A stretch of DNA of 64,000 nt from a phage. Positions 13,808 through 64,000 of the stretch are shown piece after piece. The position numbers and the translations under genes are program-made. How positions within the stretch are numbered: the first letter of the stretch is position 1; every line of letters begins with the position of its first letter. The notes beneath the pieces were generated by a model. The model made no database searches, was not told the DNA's origin, and saw only the letters and a program-made list of their open reading frames with translations. The stretch lies in NCBI GenBank assembly GCA_017686895.1, contig GCA_017686895.1_4521.1. One strand, 5' to 3'.

Positions 13808-13813
13808 TAAAAA

Positions 13814-13829
13814 GGAGACTTCGGTCTCC
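13814..13829 (+). terminator. UUCG-tetraloop hairpin (GGAGAC-TTCG-GTCTCC) after gene 41
   Basis: Perfect 6-bp stem, TTCG loop, followed by TTT. Confidence 0.5.
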
Positions 13830-13836
13830 TTTCGGG

Positions 13837-14270: not shown

Positions 14271-14299
14271 GTTTACTTCTCCAGTAGTTGTGTTATTAT
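14271..14299 (+). promoter_or_regulatory. Early-type promoter GTTTAC-N17-TATTAT embedded in a 12-bp inverted repeat
   Basis: Arms CTCCAGTAGTTG (14279-14290) and CAACTACTGGAG (14308-14319) flank the -10; the downstream arm contains the SD. Confidence 0.55.
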
Positions 14300-14325
14300 A
14301 GACCTATCAACTACTGGAGAACAAA

Positions 14326-14643: not shown

Positions 14644-14831
14644 GCAAATTAACTAAAGTTACTTTTATCGGTTGGTTTAAAAGCGGTGAGATGTTCACTA
14701 AAGATATCATGTTATCAGGTGATCGCGAAGAAATCGAGTGGGTTACGGTACAACTTGCTGAAGTGAACAATGCATTAGTTAAAGCATTTATTAATGACGA
14801 GAAAGTTTTTGAAGCTGATTTCAGAGGATAA
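14640..14831 (+). CDS. Small protein, possibly Dmd (61.5)-like antitoxin
   Basis: 63 aa from ATG 14640 (SD GAGGAAA, ATGA overlap); position next to gene 41 and motifs KVTFIGWF, NALVKAFI resemble my uncertain recollection of T4 Dmd. Confidence 0.35.
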   Translation: MSKLTKVTFIGWFKSGEMFTKDIMLSGDREEIEWVTVQLAEVNNALVKAFINDEKVFEADFRG

Positions 14832-14832
14832 T

Positions 14833-15045
14833 ATGTATTCAACTGTGTTTAAACCATCAACATACGAATTTGCATCAACTACACAATGGAAAGCTCTTAT
14901 TCTGGAAGGATGGGAACTAATGATGGACTGCGAAGCATCTGAAAAGTTTCCACACGGCAAAGTGGACTTCGTTAAATTTGCTGTACGTCCGACTAAACGA
15001 CAGATTCGTCAAGAAAAACGCAAATTTCGAAAAAGTTTAAAATAG
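14833..15045 (+). CDS. Hypothetical protein
   Basis: 70 aa from ATG 14833 (SD GAGGA); basic C-terminus. Confidence 0.4.
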   Translation: MYSTVFKPSTYEFASTTQWKALILEGWELMMDCEASEKFPHGKVDFVKFAVRPTKRQIRQEKRKFRKSLK

Positions 15046-15047
15046 CT

Positions 15048-15077
15048 GTTTACAAGCACCACATACTGTGTTACTAT
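15048..15077 (+). promoter_or_regulatory. Early-type promoter GTTTAC-N18-TACTAT
   Basis: Followed by the CTATCAACTAC element shared with the 14300 promoter. Confidence 0.4.
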
Positions 15078-15788: not shown

Positions 15789-15818
15789 GTTTACATTATA
15801 GATGGACTATAGTATAGT
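15789..15818 (+). promoter_or_regulatory. Early-type promoter GTTTAC-N18-TATAGT
   Basis: Followed by AGTCCTATCAA box; imperfect inverted repeat GGACTA/TAGTCC around the -10. Confidence 0.45.
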
Positions 15819-15847
15819 AGTCCTATCAAATTAACTAAGGAGTTAAA

Positions 15848-19345: not shown

Positions 19346-19351
19346 TTAAGT

Positions 19352-21139: not shown

Positions 21140-21168
21140 GTTTACATTCCCTCCTCTCGTGTTATGAT
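21140..21168 (+). promoter_or_regulatory. Early-type promoter GTTTAC-N17-TATGAT
   Basis: The G of GTTTAC is the last base of the upstream TAG stop; spacer CCTCC is complementary to downstream SD GGAGG. Confidence 0.5.
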
Positions 21169-21195
21169 AGGCTTATCTTTAAATGGAGGTCTATC

Positions 21196-25658: not shown

Positions 25659-25688
25659 GTTTACAACCAAGGATGGTTGGAGTATAAT
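25659..25688 (+). promoter_or_regulatory. Early-type promoter GTTTAC-N18-TATAAT
   Basis: Spacer ...CAAGGATGGTTGGAGTATAAT is near-duplicated at 26215-26245. Confidence 0.5.
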
Positions 25689-27193: not shown

Positions 27194-27222
27194 GTTTACT
27201 TCTCCTCTGGTTTTGATATTAT
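27194..27222 (+). promoter_or_regulatory. Early-type promoter GTTTAC-N17-TATTAT embedded in an 11-bp inverted repeat
   Basis: Arms CTCCTCTGGTT (27202-27212) and AACCAGAGGAG (27232-27242); downstream arm is the SD of the 27249 gene. Confidence 0.55.
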
Positions 27223-27248
27223 AACCATATCAACCAGAGGAGAATAAT

Positions 27249-27773: not shown

Positions 27774-27830
27774 TGTACAACAACTATGGTCTATGATACT
27801 ATAGACCTATCAAAACAAGAGGAGAATATT

Positions 27831-36411: not shown

Positions 36412-36441
36412 GTTTACAACTAAGTAGGACTATGATATAGT
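36412..36441 (+). promoter_or_regulatory. Early-type promoter GTTTAC-N18-TATAGT
   Basis: Followed by AGTCCTATC box. Confidence 0.45.
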
Positions 36442-36467
36442 AGTCCTATCTAAAAGAGGATAACATC

Positions 36468-36731
36468 ATGAAATTTAAATTTTTCTACGCAAAACATAAA
36501 GTGACTGGTGAGTTTGTTTCAATGTACAACACTGCAGATGACGAAGGGATGATTTATACTCATTTAGGTCTATCTCATTGGGACTCAGACGTGCCTTATA
36601 TGTCATCCGAAGCCGAAATAACTCGTTTAGTTAATGGACATATGAATGACCATTTTGGTGTTATTCTTTCTAAAGACCTTAAAGAGGTTATCAACAAAGG
36701 ATATATGGAACTCGCGGAAGTTGAGATATGA
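36468..36731 (+). CDS. Hypothetical protein
   Basis: 87-aa ORF. Confidence 0.5.
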   Translation: MKFKFFYAKHKVTGEFVSMYNTADDEGMIYTHLGLSHWDSDVPYMSSEAEITRLVNGHMNDHFGVILSKDLKEVINKGYMELAEVEI

Positions 36732-36923: not shown

Positions 36924-36953
36924 GTTTACATCATGGTAGGATTATGGTATAGT
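36924..36953 (+). promoter_or_regulatory. Early-type promoter GTTTAC-N18-TATAGT
   Basis: Followed by AGTCCTATCAA box. Confidence 0.45.
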
Positions 36954-36981
36954 AGTCCTATCAAAACACGAGGAATACAAA

Positions 36982-37182
36982 ATGGCTAAGCTTTTTAAAG
37001 ATGTTGAAATTGGTGAAAAATTTGTCCTGAATAATGGTCAGCAGCTTATTCGTGTAGCTTCTATAGCCGGACAAACTCATAACTGCATCGCCCCAACGTG
37101 TTGGACCCGATTCTTTATTGAGGATGACACCGAATGTTTAACCGTTGAAGAGCTTTTTGAACGTTCTGATATGACCGAATAA
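36982..37182 (+). CDS. Hypothetical protein
   Basis: 66-aa ORF. Confidence 0.45.
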   Translation: MAKLFKDVEIGEKFVLNNGQQLIRVASIAGQTHNCIAPTCWTRFFIEDDTECLTVEELFERSDMTE

Positions 37183-37184
37183 AA

Positions 37185-37221
37185 TTGTACAAACTCTTGA
37201 GAGCAGAGTATAATGCTCTCA
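37185..37221 (+). promoter_or_regulatory. Promoter-like element TTGTAC-N18-TATAAT with flanking inverted repeat
   Basis: TGAGAGC (37198-37204) and GCTCTCA (37215-37221) bracket the -10. Confidence 0.4.
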
Positions 37222-37258: not shown

Positions 37259-37705
37259 ATGTCCAAATATTTAACTCGTAAAGACCTTCTGGCCGTTGGC
37301 GGTGAAGTTGTTGCAGTAGTTCGTAATGGTGAATACGGTTCCGAAGTTTCTAAAGAGTTTCGTTCTCGTGAAGGTTTTTACTTCTTTGTTAAAGGTTCAT
37401 CTGACTGGCGACAAGTAGCAGCACGATTCTTTGTAGGACGTCAACGTTCTAAACAAGGGTTAGATGCAATTCTTTCTCACATTCGTCAAGGCCGTTCACA
37501 ACTAGCTCGTACCATGGGTACTAATAATATTGAATATGACGTAATTTTTGTTTCAGCCAAGAACATGAAACCTCTGACCACTGGTTATGGTAAAGGTCAA
37601 TTGGCTCTGGCATTCACTCGCAATCATTCATCAGAATATCAAACACTCACTGAAATGAACCGTCTCCTGGCTGATAATTTCAAATTCATTCTGCAGAGTT
37701 ACTAA
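37259..37705 (+). CDS. ndd: Nucleoid disruption protein Ndd
   Basis: 148 aa; FYVGNQRSKQG...LSHIRQ.RSQLART...[19 protein letters not shown] matches recalled T4 Ndd. Confidence 0.8.
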
Positions 37706-39521: not shown

Positions 39522-39560
39522 AGACCTATCAAAACAAAACAACCAAATTGGAGAAATAAA

Positions 39561-39776
39561 ATGTCTAAAATGAAATTAACCCAAAACACAACTACTCGTT
39601 TCGGTAAAGTCAAACCCGGTATGAATGCTCTCCGTAAAGCACTTGTTGAAGAATTAAATTTCTTAGAAGTTGAAATCAATTCTTTAGTGGTTCGCGGTTC
39701 AAATGGACATCATTTAGAAAAGCTTCGTTCTAAAAAGGCAAAACTTATTAGCCTTATTAAAGAAATGAGTTTGTAA
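39561..39776 (+). CDS. Hypothetical protein
   Basis: 71-aa ORF; N-terminus similar to the motA N-terminus (MSK..., shared leader TTGGAGAAATAAAATGTCTAAA). Confidence 0.45.
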   Translation: MSKMKLTQNTTTRFGKVKPGMNALRKALVEELNFLEVEINSLVVRGSNGHHLEKLRSKKAKLISLIKEMSL

Positions 39777-56497: not shown

Positions 56498-56890
56498 ATG
56501 GAAATCGGAAAATCTTATATCATTAACCCTTTATTTAAAGACGACTTTGTTCAAGAAGCACCACACAATAACGCTAAGATGTTAAAATTAATTGAACTCC
56601 ACGGGCCTAGTTTTGTTGTAAACGGAATGGAACCTGATTATGATAGCGATACGTCAAACGTAGTAAGTGTAACTATGGAAGATGGTACTGTATGTTCTGC
56701 CGGTGGTGAAATTGAAACTTATTTTGAGATTTATCCTGACGAGTTCAAATACTTTATTGAGGTAGATTTAGTAAAGCCTCAACCTACTAACGAAGGTATA
56801 ACTTTAGGTGTAACAAAAATCCATTGTATCGTAGATGAAACCAACGTCGACGAAATCATCAAACTTTTGCAAAAAACTTTTAAAAAGTAG
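56498..56890 (+). CDS. Hypothetical protein (frd.3 position)
   Basis: 130-aa ORF. Confidence 0.5.
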   Translation: MEIGKSYIINPLFKDDFVQEAPHNNAKMLKLIELHGPSFVVNGMEPDYDSDTSNVVSVTMEDGTVCSAGGEIETYFEIYPDEFKYFIEVDLVKPQPTNEGITLGVTKIHCIVDETNVDEIIKLLQKTFKK

Positions 56891-56927
56891 TTTATAACAA
56901 GATAGGGTTATGTTATAGTAGCCCTAT
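56890..56927 (+). promoter_or_regulatory. Early-type promoter GTTTAT-N18-TATAGT with flanking inverted repeat
   Basis: G of the -35 is the last base of the TAG stop; ATAGGGTTA / TAGCCCTAT arms bracket the -10. Confidence 0.45.
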
Positions 56928-56953
56928 CAAATAAAAGTGAAGAGGAGAATAAA

Positions 56954-59283: not shown

Positions 59284-59532
59284 ATGATTTTACGTTTTAT
59301 TAATTCATATGGCACCACAATTTTTGAAATGAAAAATCCAAGTGAACTGGATATCCCTTCACCAAATAGTGAAATCACAGTTAAAGGTGAACGATTCATT
59401 TGCCATTCACACGAACGAATTTATGAATATCGTGAATTTTGTGGTGGTTACGGTATGGAAAAAGAACCATTGGTTTATTTCGATATCACGGTCTTGACAC
59501 CTAAAGAATATGAAGAATTGGAACGTAACTAA
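59284..59532 (+). CDS. Hypothetical protein
   Basis: 82 aa from ATG 59284, directly after the td stop. Confidence 0.4.
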   Translation: MILRFINSYGTTIFEMKNPSELDIPSPNSEITVKGERFICHSHERIYEYREFCGGYGMEKEPLVYFDITVLTPKEYEELERN

Positions 59533-59750
59533 TGGGTATCAATATTCGTATTGTTCGTAAAGGACATGGTAGTAAAAAGGTGTTAGCTGAACTTTATAAT
59601 GCTAATCCTCTTGAGCTCCCTATTAAAACTGAGACAATTAATGTTGACGGCTTTGAAGAGAGAGAGTTCTCTCTGTTACAAAGGTGTATGAATATAATAA
59701 GCATAATCTTTTGGATAATGTTTATGACTGTTGGTTTGAGGTTGACGTAA
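59532..59750 (+). CDS. Hypothetical protein
   Basis: 72-aa ORF, TAATG coupling. Confidence 0.4.
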   Translation: MGINIRIVRKGHGSKKVLAELYNANPLELPIKTETINVDGFEEREFSLLQRCMNIISIIFWIMFMTVGLRLT

Positions 59751-59751
59751 C

Positions 59752-60057
59752 ATGAAAATATGCCGCGTAGTGAATAAATACAAATCAGATTTTGATGTTA
59801 ATATTCACCGTGGCACATTCTGGGGAAATTATGTAGGCAAGGATGCCTCTTCTCGAGAAGAAGCTATTGAGCTTTTCAAAAAGGATTTTATTAAAAGAAT
59901 TAGAAGTGGAGAAATCACAAAAGCTCATCTTGAACCTTTACGTGGGATGCGATTAGGATGCACATGTAAACCAAAAGCCTGTCATGGTGATATAATAGCT
60001 CTAGTGGTTAATAAACTTTTTAAAGATGAATTTAATATAGAGGACATATGCAAGTAA
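59752..60057 (+). CDS. Hypothetical protein with CxC...CHGD motif
   Basis: 101-aa ORF; LGCTCKPKACHGD. Confidence 0.45.
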   Translation: MKICRVVNKYKSDFDVNIHRGTFWGNYVGKDASSREEAIELFKKDFIKRIRSGEITKAHLEPLRGMRLGCTCKPKACHGDIIALVVNKLFKDEFNIEDICK

Positions 60058-63558: not shown

Positions 63559-63969
63559 ATGAAAGATATTGCCGCCGAATATTCCTTTATTAAATATACA
63601 GAATTGGAGCTATTAGAAGATGCAACAATTAAAACAGTCGACGTCCCTAATAAGAAAAATGTCATATACGCTATTGCTATAGATGACGAACTTTTGTATA
63701 TTGGTAAAACCAAGAATTTAAAGAAACGCATTAACTATTATCGAACAGCCATAAATCGAAAAGACCAGACTTCAGATTCAAGAAAATCACTTATGATTTT
63801 GGATGCCTTAATGCAAGGCAAAAAGGTTGAATTCTGGGCCCGCCAATGTTTTGACCTTTCAGTCACTAACGAACTTGGTTCAATGACCATTGCAACAATG
63901 GACCTTGAAGAACCACTTTTTATCAAAAAGTTCAACCCGCCTTGGAATATCCAACATAAGAAAAAGTAG
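63559..63969 (+). CDS. denA: Endonuclease II DenA (GIY-YIG nuclease)
   Basis: 136 aa, same length as T4 EndoII; VIYAIAID...LLYIGKTKNLKKRI GIY-YIG motif; position after nrdB. Confidence 0.75.
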   Translation: MKDIAAEYSFIKYTELELLEDATIKTVDVPNKKNVIYAIAIDDELLYIGKTKNLKKRINYYRTAINRKDQTSDSRKSLMILDALMQGKKVEFWARQCFDLSVTNELGSMTIATMDLEEPLFIKKFNPPWNIQHKKK

Positions 63970-64000
63970 TTTACATACCACAAGGATTGTGGTACAATTT

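Follow-up and report, generated by a model that had tools for sequence, protein, structure and literature searches.

The early promoter of ndd in a T4-type phage carries an inverted repeat, the two arms of which lie on either side of the -10 hexamer. The question raised by this locus is whether such an arrangement is fortuitous and, if it is not, whether it serves a DNA-binding protein, a structure in the DNA, recombination, or a structure in RNA. We considered it in the context of a stretch of phage DNA of 64,000 nucleotides (hereafter, the window). Judged by its similarity to known genomes, the window is derived from an RB69-like Mosigvirus, a T4-type phage: it shares 97% identity with Shigella phage Shf125875 (Mosigvirus), and its ndd region shares 99% with that of phage RB69.

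Hairpins embedded in early promoters

An early-promoter weight matrix gave 21 matches on the + strand of the window and none on the - strand. Overall, about 22 sigma-70-type early promoters are found in the window, all of them on the + strand, and 47-49 in the Shf125875 genome. Their consensus consists of GTTTAC or TGTAC, an N17-18 spacer and TAnnnT, with A-rich sequence upstream, and the promoters of the window have the start region ag.CCTATCAA in common. The presumed start of transcription is the A of cctAtcaa, 7 nt after the -10 hexamer, which is at or after the 3' arm of the hairpin. The intergenic regions are about 60-80 bp long and are occupied by the UP element, the -35 and -10 hexamers, the start site and the Shine-Dalgarno sequence. 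Each of the three promoters in the ndd neighbourhood corresponds to an early promoter predicted for RB69 by Nolan 2006 (identifiers in Table 1).

The ag.CCTATCAA motif extends from just after the -10 hexamer across the presumed start (e.g. 36442-36452, 39522-39533 and 56920-56930) and is far better conserved than in ordinary sigma-70 promoters. Part of this motif is also the 3' arm of a hairpin, and it becomes CCTACC or CCTACTG when the 5' flank changes.

At ndd, the stop codon of the preceding gene (37180-37182) is followed by the hairpin, a Shine-Dalgarno sequence at about 37247 and the ATG at 37259, the first codon of an ORF (37259-37705) whose promoter-like site is located 38 nt upstream. 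The stem is a perfect 7 bp, and the -10 hexamer is contained within the 10-nt loop (Table 1). A previous reading of the sequence alone had noted the arms TGAGAGC and GCTCTCA around this hexamer, and their coordinates proved to be exact. The three similar repeats that it had listed also exist, with some amendments. The arms at 56902/56919 are present as ATAGGGTTA (56902-56910) and TAGCCCTAT (56919-56927), but they contain one T.G wobble and thus are imperfect complements. GGACTA/TAGTCC, placed at 15805/15819, begins one base earlier in both arms (15804 and 15818). The repeat at 63976-63994 lies within the spacer, and its right arm overlaps the first two bases of the -10 hexamer. The remaining four hairpins of Table 1 had not been listed.

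Table 1. Early promoter of ndd and promoter-associated hairpins in the window. Folding energies are for RNA, and z is relative to dinucleotide shuffles.
Feature	Position	Strand	Arms and loop	Promoter and context	Fold (kcal/mol)	z
ndd early promoter	37186-37214	+		-35 TGTACA 37186-37191, 17-nt spacer, -10 TATAAT 37209-37214; consensus scan; RB69 Pe:165022		
ndd hairpin	37198-37221	+	TGAGAGC 37198-37204, loop AGAGTATAAT 37205-37214, GCTCTCA 37215-37221		-13.9	-3.5
Hairpin	56901-56928	+	GATAGGGTTA/TAGCCCTATC, one U.G wobble	-35 ~56890-56895, -10 TATAGT 56914-56919	-16.3	-5.8
Hairpin	15801-15827	+	core GGACTA 15804-15809 / TAGTCC 15818-15823	-10 TATAGT 15813-15818	-11.1	-3.6
Spacer hairpin, 'CAAGGAT-loop' subclass	63976-63994	+	TACCACAA 63976-63983, GGA, TTGTGGTA 63987-63994	-35 GTTTAC 63969-63974, -10 TACAAT 63993-63998	-8.3	-3.0
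Hairpin	36425-36448	+	TAGGACTA/TAGTCCTA, 8 bp perfect	-10 TATAGT 36436-36441; promoter of 87-aa ORF 36468-36731; RB69 Pe:165795		
Hairpin	36935-36962	+	GGTAGGATTA/TAGTCCTATC, 10 bp, one U.G wobble	-10 TATAGT 36948-36953; promoter of ndd.1-like ORF 36982-37182; RB69 Pe:165283	-14.6	-5.1
Hairpin	27788-27807	+	GGTCTAT/ATAGACC, 7 bp	-10 TACTAT 27797-27802	-9.5	-3.9
Weak spacer hairpin	25664-25679	+	CAACCA-AGGA-TGGTTG	upstream of -10 TATAAT 25683-25688		-0.33

Compared with dinucleotide shuffles, the RNA folds of seven of the eight sites had z values between -3.0 and -5.8. The exception is the hairpin at 25664-25679, which is not significant on its own and owes its support to its family. The statement that the Shine-Dalgarno sequence is not involved holds as well, as the right arms end 20-35 nt before it (at 37221, 56928, 15827, 36448 and 36962). 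The sequence downstream of the 63976 hairpin runs past the end of the window, and among the hairpins noted previously this statement covers the other three.

In the window and the Shf125875 genome taken together, most early promoters contain an inverted repeat with its left arm in the spacer between the -35 and -10 hexamers. Three classes can be distinguished by the position of the right arm. In class A, it extends from the end of the -10 hexamer to about +1/+3, and the hexamer is in the loop. About 17 of 47 promoters belong here, including those of ndd and of the hairpins at 56901, 15801, 36425-36448, 36935-36962 and 27788-27807. In class B, the entire hairpin is in the spacer and has a CAAGGAT-type loop, as at 63976, at 25664 and in the T4 promoter upstream of ndd.6. 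In class C, it extends over the Shine-Dalgarno sequence, as at 14277-14288 with 14310-14321 and at 27200-27211 with 27233-27244. Our question concerns classes A and B. Hairpins clear of the Shine-Dalgarno sequence are found in about 40% of the early promoters, a proportion that rises to about 70% if the sequestering hairpins are counted, and about one quarter of the early promoters have no hairpin at all.

Two class C promoters (TTTAC at 14272 and 27195) have spacer/Shine-Dalgarno pairs TTCTCCAGTAGT/ACTACTGGAGAA and TTCTCCTCTGGT/ACCAGAGGAGAA of 12 bp each, which fold at -21 to -24 kcal/mol, and a further spacer/Shine-Dalgarno complement is formed by 21150-21154 with 21185-21189. In read-through RNA, such pairing would hide the ribosome-binding site, whereas the promoter's own transcript would leave it free. 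The T4 RefSeq record carries no promoter features, and three T4 promoters were examined by eye. The one upstream of ndd.6 contains the spacer hairpin TACCAC-AAGGACC-GTGGTA (record coordinates 167086-167040), and the one upstream of ndd.4 shows a 14-15 bp pairing between the spacer and the Shine-Dalgarno region (record coordinates 166807-166760).

Enrichment over chance and covariation of the arms

A sequence of 64 kb contains many inverted repeats of 6-7 bp, and those described here could simply reflect chance complementarity in AT-rich sequence or be a by-product of the promoter consensus. About 5% of control -10-like hexamers have a 6-bp bracketing repeat, and the weakest example in Table 1 does not stand out by itself. 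Counted against shuffled controls, however, repeats that flank -10 hexamers are commoner than expected. In the window, the -10 hexamer is bracketed by a perfect repeat of 7 bp or longer in 4 of the 22 early promoters versus 1.55% of 2125 other -10-like hexamers (binomial p = 3.4e-4), and spacer shuffles averaged 0.16 and did not exceed 2. As a stricter control, we used chimeras in which the spacer of one promoter was joined to the downstream part of another, with the position-specific consensus retained. Repeats of at least 7 bp were present in 13/47 promoters of the Shf125875 genome versus 3.2% of its chimeras (permutation z = 7.7, 0/2000). For a viral metagenome sample (120 IMG/VR loci with 242 distinct promoter-like sites), the corresponding values were 17.8% and 2.2% (z = 13.6). 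The chimeras thus keep the consensus and yet have about eight times fewer repeats of this length.

The same dependence is seen with individual 5-mers in the IMG/VR sites. When AGCCC follows the -10 hexamer, GGGCT is present in the promoter's own spacer in 13 of 15 cases, compared with 1.3% of the other promoters. The reverse complements of TACCC, AACCC and AGACC are found in their own spacers in 4/6 cases (0.4% of others), 4/5 cases (0.8%) and 6/25 cases (0.5%), respectively. Chance, against which the compensatory changes described below also speak, is virtually excluded and is refuted for the class as a whole; single short cases such as GGACTA/TAGTCC could be partly fortuitous. The repeats are non-random and promoter-associated, and they form a class distinct from those that sequester the Shine-Dalgarno sequence, as had been proposed from the sequence alone.

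The ndd-type promoters belong to a family of the form T[TG]TAC-aaactctt-NNNNNNN-cagagTATAAT-NNNNNNN. Its members precede ndd, e.6, 55.2 and other genes in the genera Mosigvirus, Gaprivervirus, Tequatrovirus and Dhakavirus. Orthologues were obtained by BLAST against phage genomes. Unfortunately, the viral contigs contributed little here: the matches listed in a 14-mer scan with the ndd loop GCAGAGTATAATGC were unrelated and gave no usable orthologue, and a search for Ndd-encoding loci returned only three, which were near-identical. Within the family, no variation is seen in the -35 hexamer, the 5' portion of the spacer or the loop, whereas the arms vary. Fully paired combinations are TGAGAGC/GCTCTCA, AGGAGC/GCTCCT, TGGGGTC/GACCCCA, TGGGAGT/ACTCCCA and TGGGACC/GGTCCCA, and two others, TGGGAGC/GTTCCCA and TGGGAGC/GCTCCTA, contain one G.U pair each. 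Overall, 98.2% of the cells of the alignment are paired, with compensatory double changes in 5 of the 7 stem pairs. None of 500 shuffles came up to these two values, and sliding the partner columns reduced the pairing to 39-52%.

The spacer-hairpin ('CAAGGAT-loop') family co-varies in the same manner (AACCA/TGGTT, ATCCA/TGGAT, CACCA/TGGTG, and TACCAC/GTGGTA in T4). In the TATAGTAGTCCTA family, the flanks co-vary even at the expense of the conserved TATCAA start motif. Together with the enrichment, this covariation shows that pairing in the embedded hairpins is under selection.

Between promoters, the arms are unrelated to each other (GGTCTAT, TAGGACTA, AGGATGAT, TGAGAGC, TGGGGTC and others). 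This bears on the suggestion, made from the sequence alone, that the repeats are protein-binding sites. Dyad symmetry centred near a -10 hexamer is typical of repressor operators, and the repeat might be a palindromic operator for a dimeric DNA-binding protein of the phage or the host. However, no common half-site can be recognised: a single genome contains at least seven unrelated arm pairs, and what is conserved is the pairing. The arms differ freely, and the compensatory double substitutions preserve complementarity only, which contradicts the suggestion. With arms that are free to vary as long as they stay complementary, a site for a sequence-specific protein is very unlikely, and an operator is barely credible.

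Wobble pairs and upstream terminators

We next asked whether the paired molecule is RNA or DNA. Folding energies did not differ significantly between the sense and antisense strands (p = 0.12), and therefore an explicit census of mismatches was used. Internal transition mismatches on the sense strand were G.T in seven cases and A.C in none in the Shf125875 genome set, and G.T in three cases and A.C in none in the metagenome set. In the ndd family, there are two internal G.U pairs, and the lone C.A is the outermost pair of one member. In the TATAGTAGTCCTA family, where the right arm is fixed as TAGTCCTA, the single-transition variants of the left arm (TAGGGCTA, TAGGATTA and TAGGACTG) all create wobble pairs, and none of the four possible left-arm transitions that would create an A.C mismatch was seen alone. 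These counts are small and, as they include paralogues and orthologues, partly non-independent. Since transcription from the promoter itself begins at the 3' arm or beyond it, only RNA coming from upstream contains both arms. Hence, the most likely explanation is that the hairpin acts in RNA read through from upstream.

A structure in the DNA would also require pairing to be selected, and the loop always holds or adjoins the -10 hexamer. According to this alternative, a cruciform or a hairpin of the non-template strand, formed in supercoiled or transiently single-stranded DNA, would alter the activity of the promoter in which it resides. In one version, it would contribute to the shut-off of early promoters, a process described in the literature as mechanistically unexplained. 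DNA hairpins and single-stranded DNA tolerate G.T pairs too, but a bias for G.T over A.C speaks against a structure needed on both strands. A symmetric cruciform, which had been considered in the sequence-only reading, is disfavoured by this bias and by the dimensions of the repeats, as the stems are 7-10 bp and the loops are up to 10 nt long. In general, a stem of 6-10 bp that closes a loop of 4-10 nt is hardly expected to extrude as a cruciform. Furthermore, the hairpin is incompatible with initiation because the open complex keeps the left arm paired to its own complementary strand, and the geometry, such as the size of the loop and the share of the -10 hexamer that is paired, varies between promoters.

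Hairpins that are an integral part of a promoter do exist. The promoters of the phage N4 virion RNA polymerase and Frpo of plasmid F resemble the window promoters in having an inverted repeat built into them. They are recognised by the polymerase as hairpins, whereas those of the window are ordinary duplex sigma-70 promoters, in which hairpin and open complex would not coexist.

A further comparison concerns the terminators upstream. Among 123 distinct promoters of the viral contigs, an embedded hairpin (dG <= -8 kcal/mol) was found in none of the 25 that had an upstream terminator, defined as a hairpin with a T-run within 70 nt upstream, and in 36 of the 98 that had none (Fisher p = 5e-5). 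In the Shf125875 genome, where 20 of 48 promoters have a local dG <= -8 kcal/mol, the respective numbers are 0/4 and 20/44, the same trend, which is not significant. A single genome offers only four terminator-preceded promoters, and thus the larger metagenome sample was needed. The mutual exclusion of embedded hairpins and upstream terminators links the hairpins to transcripts from upstream and not to how active their own promoter is. Such a pattern would be expected if hairpin and terminator both handle incoming RNA. A role in promoter activity does not predict this exclusion, and an action at the DNA level is, in our estimate, quite unlikely.

Promoters preceded by canonical terminators such as that at 13813-13830 have no embedded hairpin. 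This terminator, AGGAGAC-TTCG-GTCTCCT followed by TT, is located directly upstream of a promoter with GTTTAC from 13837.

The embedded hairpins themselves are not canonical intrinsic terminators, as they have no U-tract and are absent from the TransTerm list of RB69. None of the promoter hairpins of the + strand is followed by a T-run, the stem being followed by a conserved AUCAA, and the three promoter hairpins near ndd are not among the 31 TransTerm terminators predicted for RB69. With Rho-independent terminators they share a stable intergenic RNA hairpin, and the two kinds exclude each other before early promoters; they differ in having no U-tract and in escaping TransTerm prediction in RB69. 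None of the Rfam covariance models matched at the gathering score anywhere in the window, and a literature search found no maps of 5' or 3' transcript ends for T4 or RB69-like phages.

Relation to known elements and possible role

Elements of this kind have been described in other T4-type phages. Arbiol et al. 2010 (PMC2839356) report 'promoter-early stem-loops' (PeSLs), the stems of which include G-T pairs, in RB49 and phi1. Comeau et al. 2014 (PMC4122927) extend them to PST/T4 and nt-1/KVP40 and suggest that they occur in probably all T4-like phages. Neither RB69 nor Mosigvirus is mentioned in these two papers, and such repeats are absent from reviews of T4 early transcription. The embedded hairpins are PeSL-type elements in the structural sense: the promoter type, the presence of a stem-loop (-8 to -16 kcal/mol), the intergenic position and the multiplicity of copies all agree with the PeSL definition. 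In both cases, a strong sigma-70-type early promoter, an AT-rich upstream region and a stem-loop are located between the stop codon upstream and the Shine-Dalgarno sequence and start codon downstream, and many paralogous copies are dispersed over the genome, often in front of small ORFs, with, for the present elements, a possible exchange of cassettes.

There are also differences. The RB49 stems are rich in G-tracts and C-tracts, whereas those of the window are mixed (GGTCTAT, TAGGACTA, TGAGAGC). The legend for PST in the 2014 paper (PMC4122927) places the stems just upstream of the promoter. The covariation, wobble bias and exclusion of terminators are not found in the available text of PMC2839356 and PMC4122927. 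Since the kind of element is already known, what is new here is limited to a further genus and to this comparative evidence.

A second precedent is provided by the hairpins of T4 e, soc, 49 and I-TevI, which sequester the ribosome-binding site and contain an internal promoter (PMC3014915). As in the T4 e/soc/49 type, the left arm lies upstream of the internal start, so that the structure can form only in read-through RNA and is absent from the RNA that the internal promoter itself initiates. The class C promoters of the window, such as those with arms at 14277-14288 and 27200-27211, have this T4 design. The known T4 cases concern late promoters, whereas the window promoters are early. In addition, the right arm of the classes considered here ends at about +1 to +3 and does not extend to the Shine-Dalgarno sequence or start codon, and therefore translation of the read-through RNA is not obviously blocked.

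With regard to function, Arbiol et al. 2010 (PMC2839356) found that one RB49/phi1 stem-loop, inserted between a promoter and lacZ, cut expression about as strongly as rrnB T1. This reporter contained a single GC-rich stem-loop from another genus, and it does not distinguish termination from effects on RNA decay or translation. By analogy, we infer that the RB69-type hairpins, devoid of a U-tract, may lower upstream expression as the RB49/phi1 element does, by one of several candidate molecular steps. The exclusion of upstream terminators lends this indirect support.

The same element is implicated in recombination. As described by Arbiol et al. 2010 (PMC2839356), crossovers occur in or next to the stem-loop, and recombination between PeSLs gives rise to mini-circles. 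It is thus conceivable that the palindromes are a recombination device only, kept for the spread of cassettes and exchange of ORFs, and play no role in expression. The promoter families are indeed scattered across four genera, where they precede unrelated genes, the right-hand junction of an ORFan replacement relative to Shf125875 falls within the promoter at 15049-15077, and near-identical promoters flank small ORFs at 36413/36925 and 39494/39815. Homologous exchange, however, needs identity and not self-complementarity, and hence the compensatory changes within a single promoter are left unexplained. Neither the strand-specific wobble bias nor the exclusion of terminators would be expected, and only one of the four large differences between the window and Shf125875 abuts a promoter. 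We consider recombination as the sole function to be unlikely. Two of these four differences are a homing-endonuclease gene and soc.1/soc.2, and therefore they are too few to test a role in recombination.

The difference that abuts a promoter is at 14820-15068, where an ORF of about 71 aa stands in place of an unrelated ORF of about 48 aa in Shf125875, and homology resumes in the promoter at 15049-15077. The GGTCTAT/ATAGACC hairpin of this promoter is intact in Shf125875, and the window's copy of the promoter has none. The other three, in order, are located at ~19346-19351 and ~54716, where the window is without soc.1/soc.2-like genes (about 350 bp in Shf125875) and without the segH homing-endonuclease gene (about 670 bp), and at 59517-60046, where an additional 420 bases or so lie between the window's nrdA.2 and nrdA homologues. 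The near-identical promoter pairs 36413-36448/36925-36962 and 39494-39540/39815-39860 flank the 87-aa ORF at 36468-36731 and a 71-aa ORF at 39561-39776 upstream of motA, respectively, and resemble tandem promoter-ORF cassettes.

The explanation that we favour, and regard as probable, is that the repeats are the stem-loop part of PeSL-type cassettes and act on RNA read through from upstream. In such compact intergenic regions, the freely variable positions are restricted to the spacer and a few bases after the -10 hexamer, and the arms are placed there. With the arms in the spacer and after the -10 hexamer, the hexamer itself is left in the loop. The promoter's own transcript, beginning at or after the 3' arm, would never contain the hairpin, which would be confined to transcripts that have run on from the next early promoter upstream. 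In these transcripts, it most likely serves to attenuate, end or insulate the RNA, whether by terminating or pausing transcription, shielding the 3' end or stopping decay, and its role would equal that of a canonical terminator ahead of a promoter. Secondarily, the conserved patches of promoter plus hairpin would provide homology for swapping promoter-ORF cassettes.

Alternatively, the hairpins might be a distinct sense-strand signal without a U-tract, as opposed to PeSL-style terminators. In RNA, such a signal might stop 5'-to-3' decay or mark a processing site exactly where the transcript of the internal promoter begins. In DNA, a hairpin of the non-template strand might be used by a phage factor in the shut-off of early promoters. 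We find a separate signal of either type distinctly improbable.

In summary, a large share of RB69-like early promoters carry a second, overlapping code, in which base-pairing is specified besides recognition by RNA polymerase. The pairing constraint on the spacer and on the positions after the -10 hexamer explains part of the 'extra consensus' of T4-type early promoters, and in promoter models of these phages, the spacer and the discriminator should be treated as linked. Transplanting or engineering these promoters also brings the hairpin along. The comparative data also lend support to the PeSL idea of a stem acting on upstream RNA, which had earlier rested on one reporter construct.
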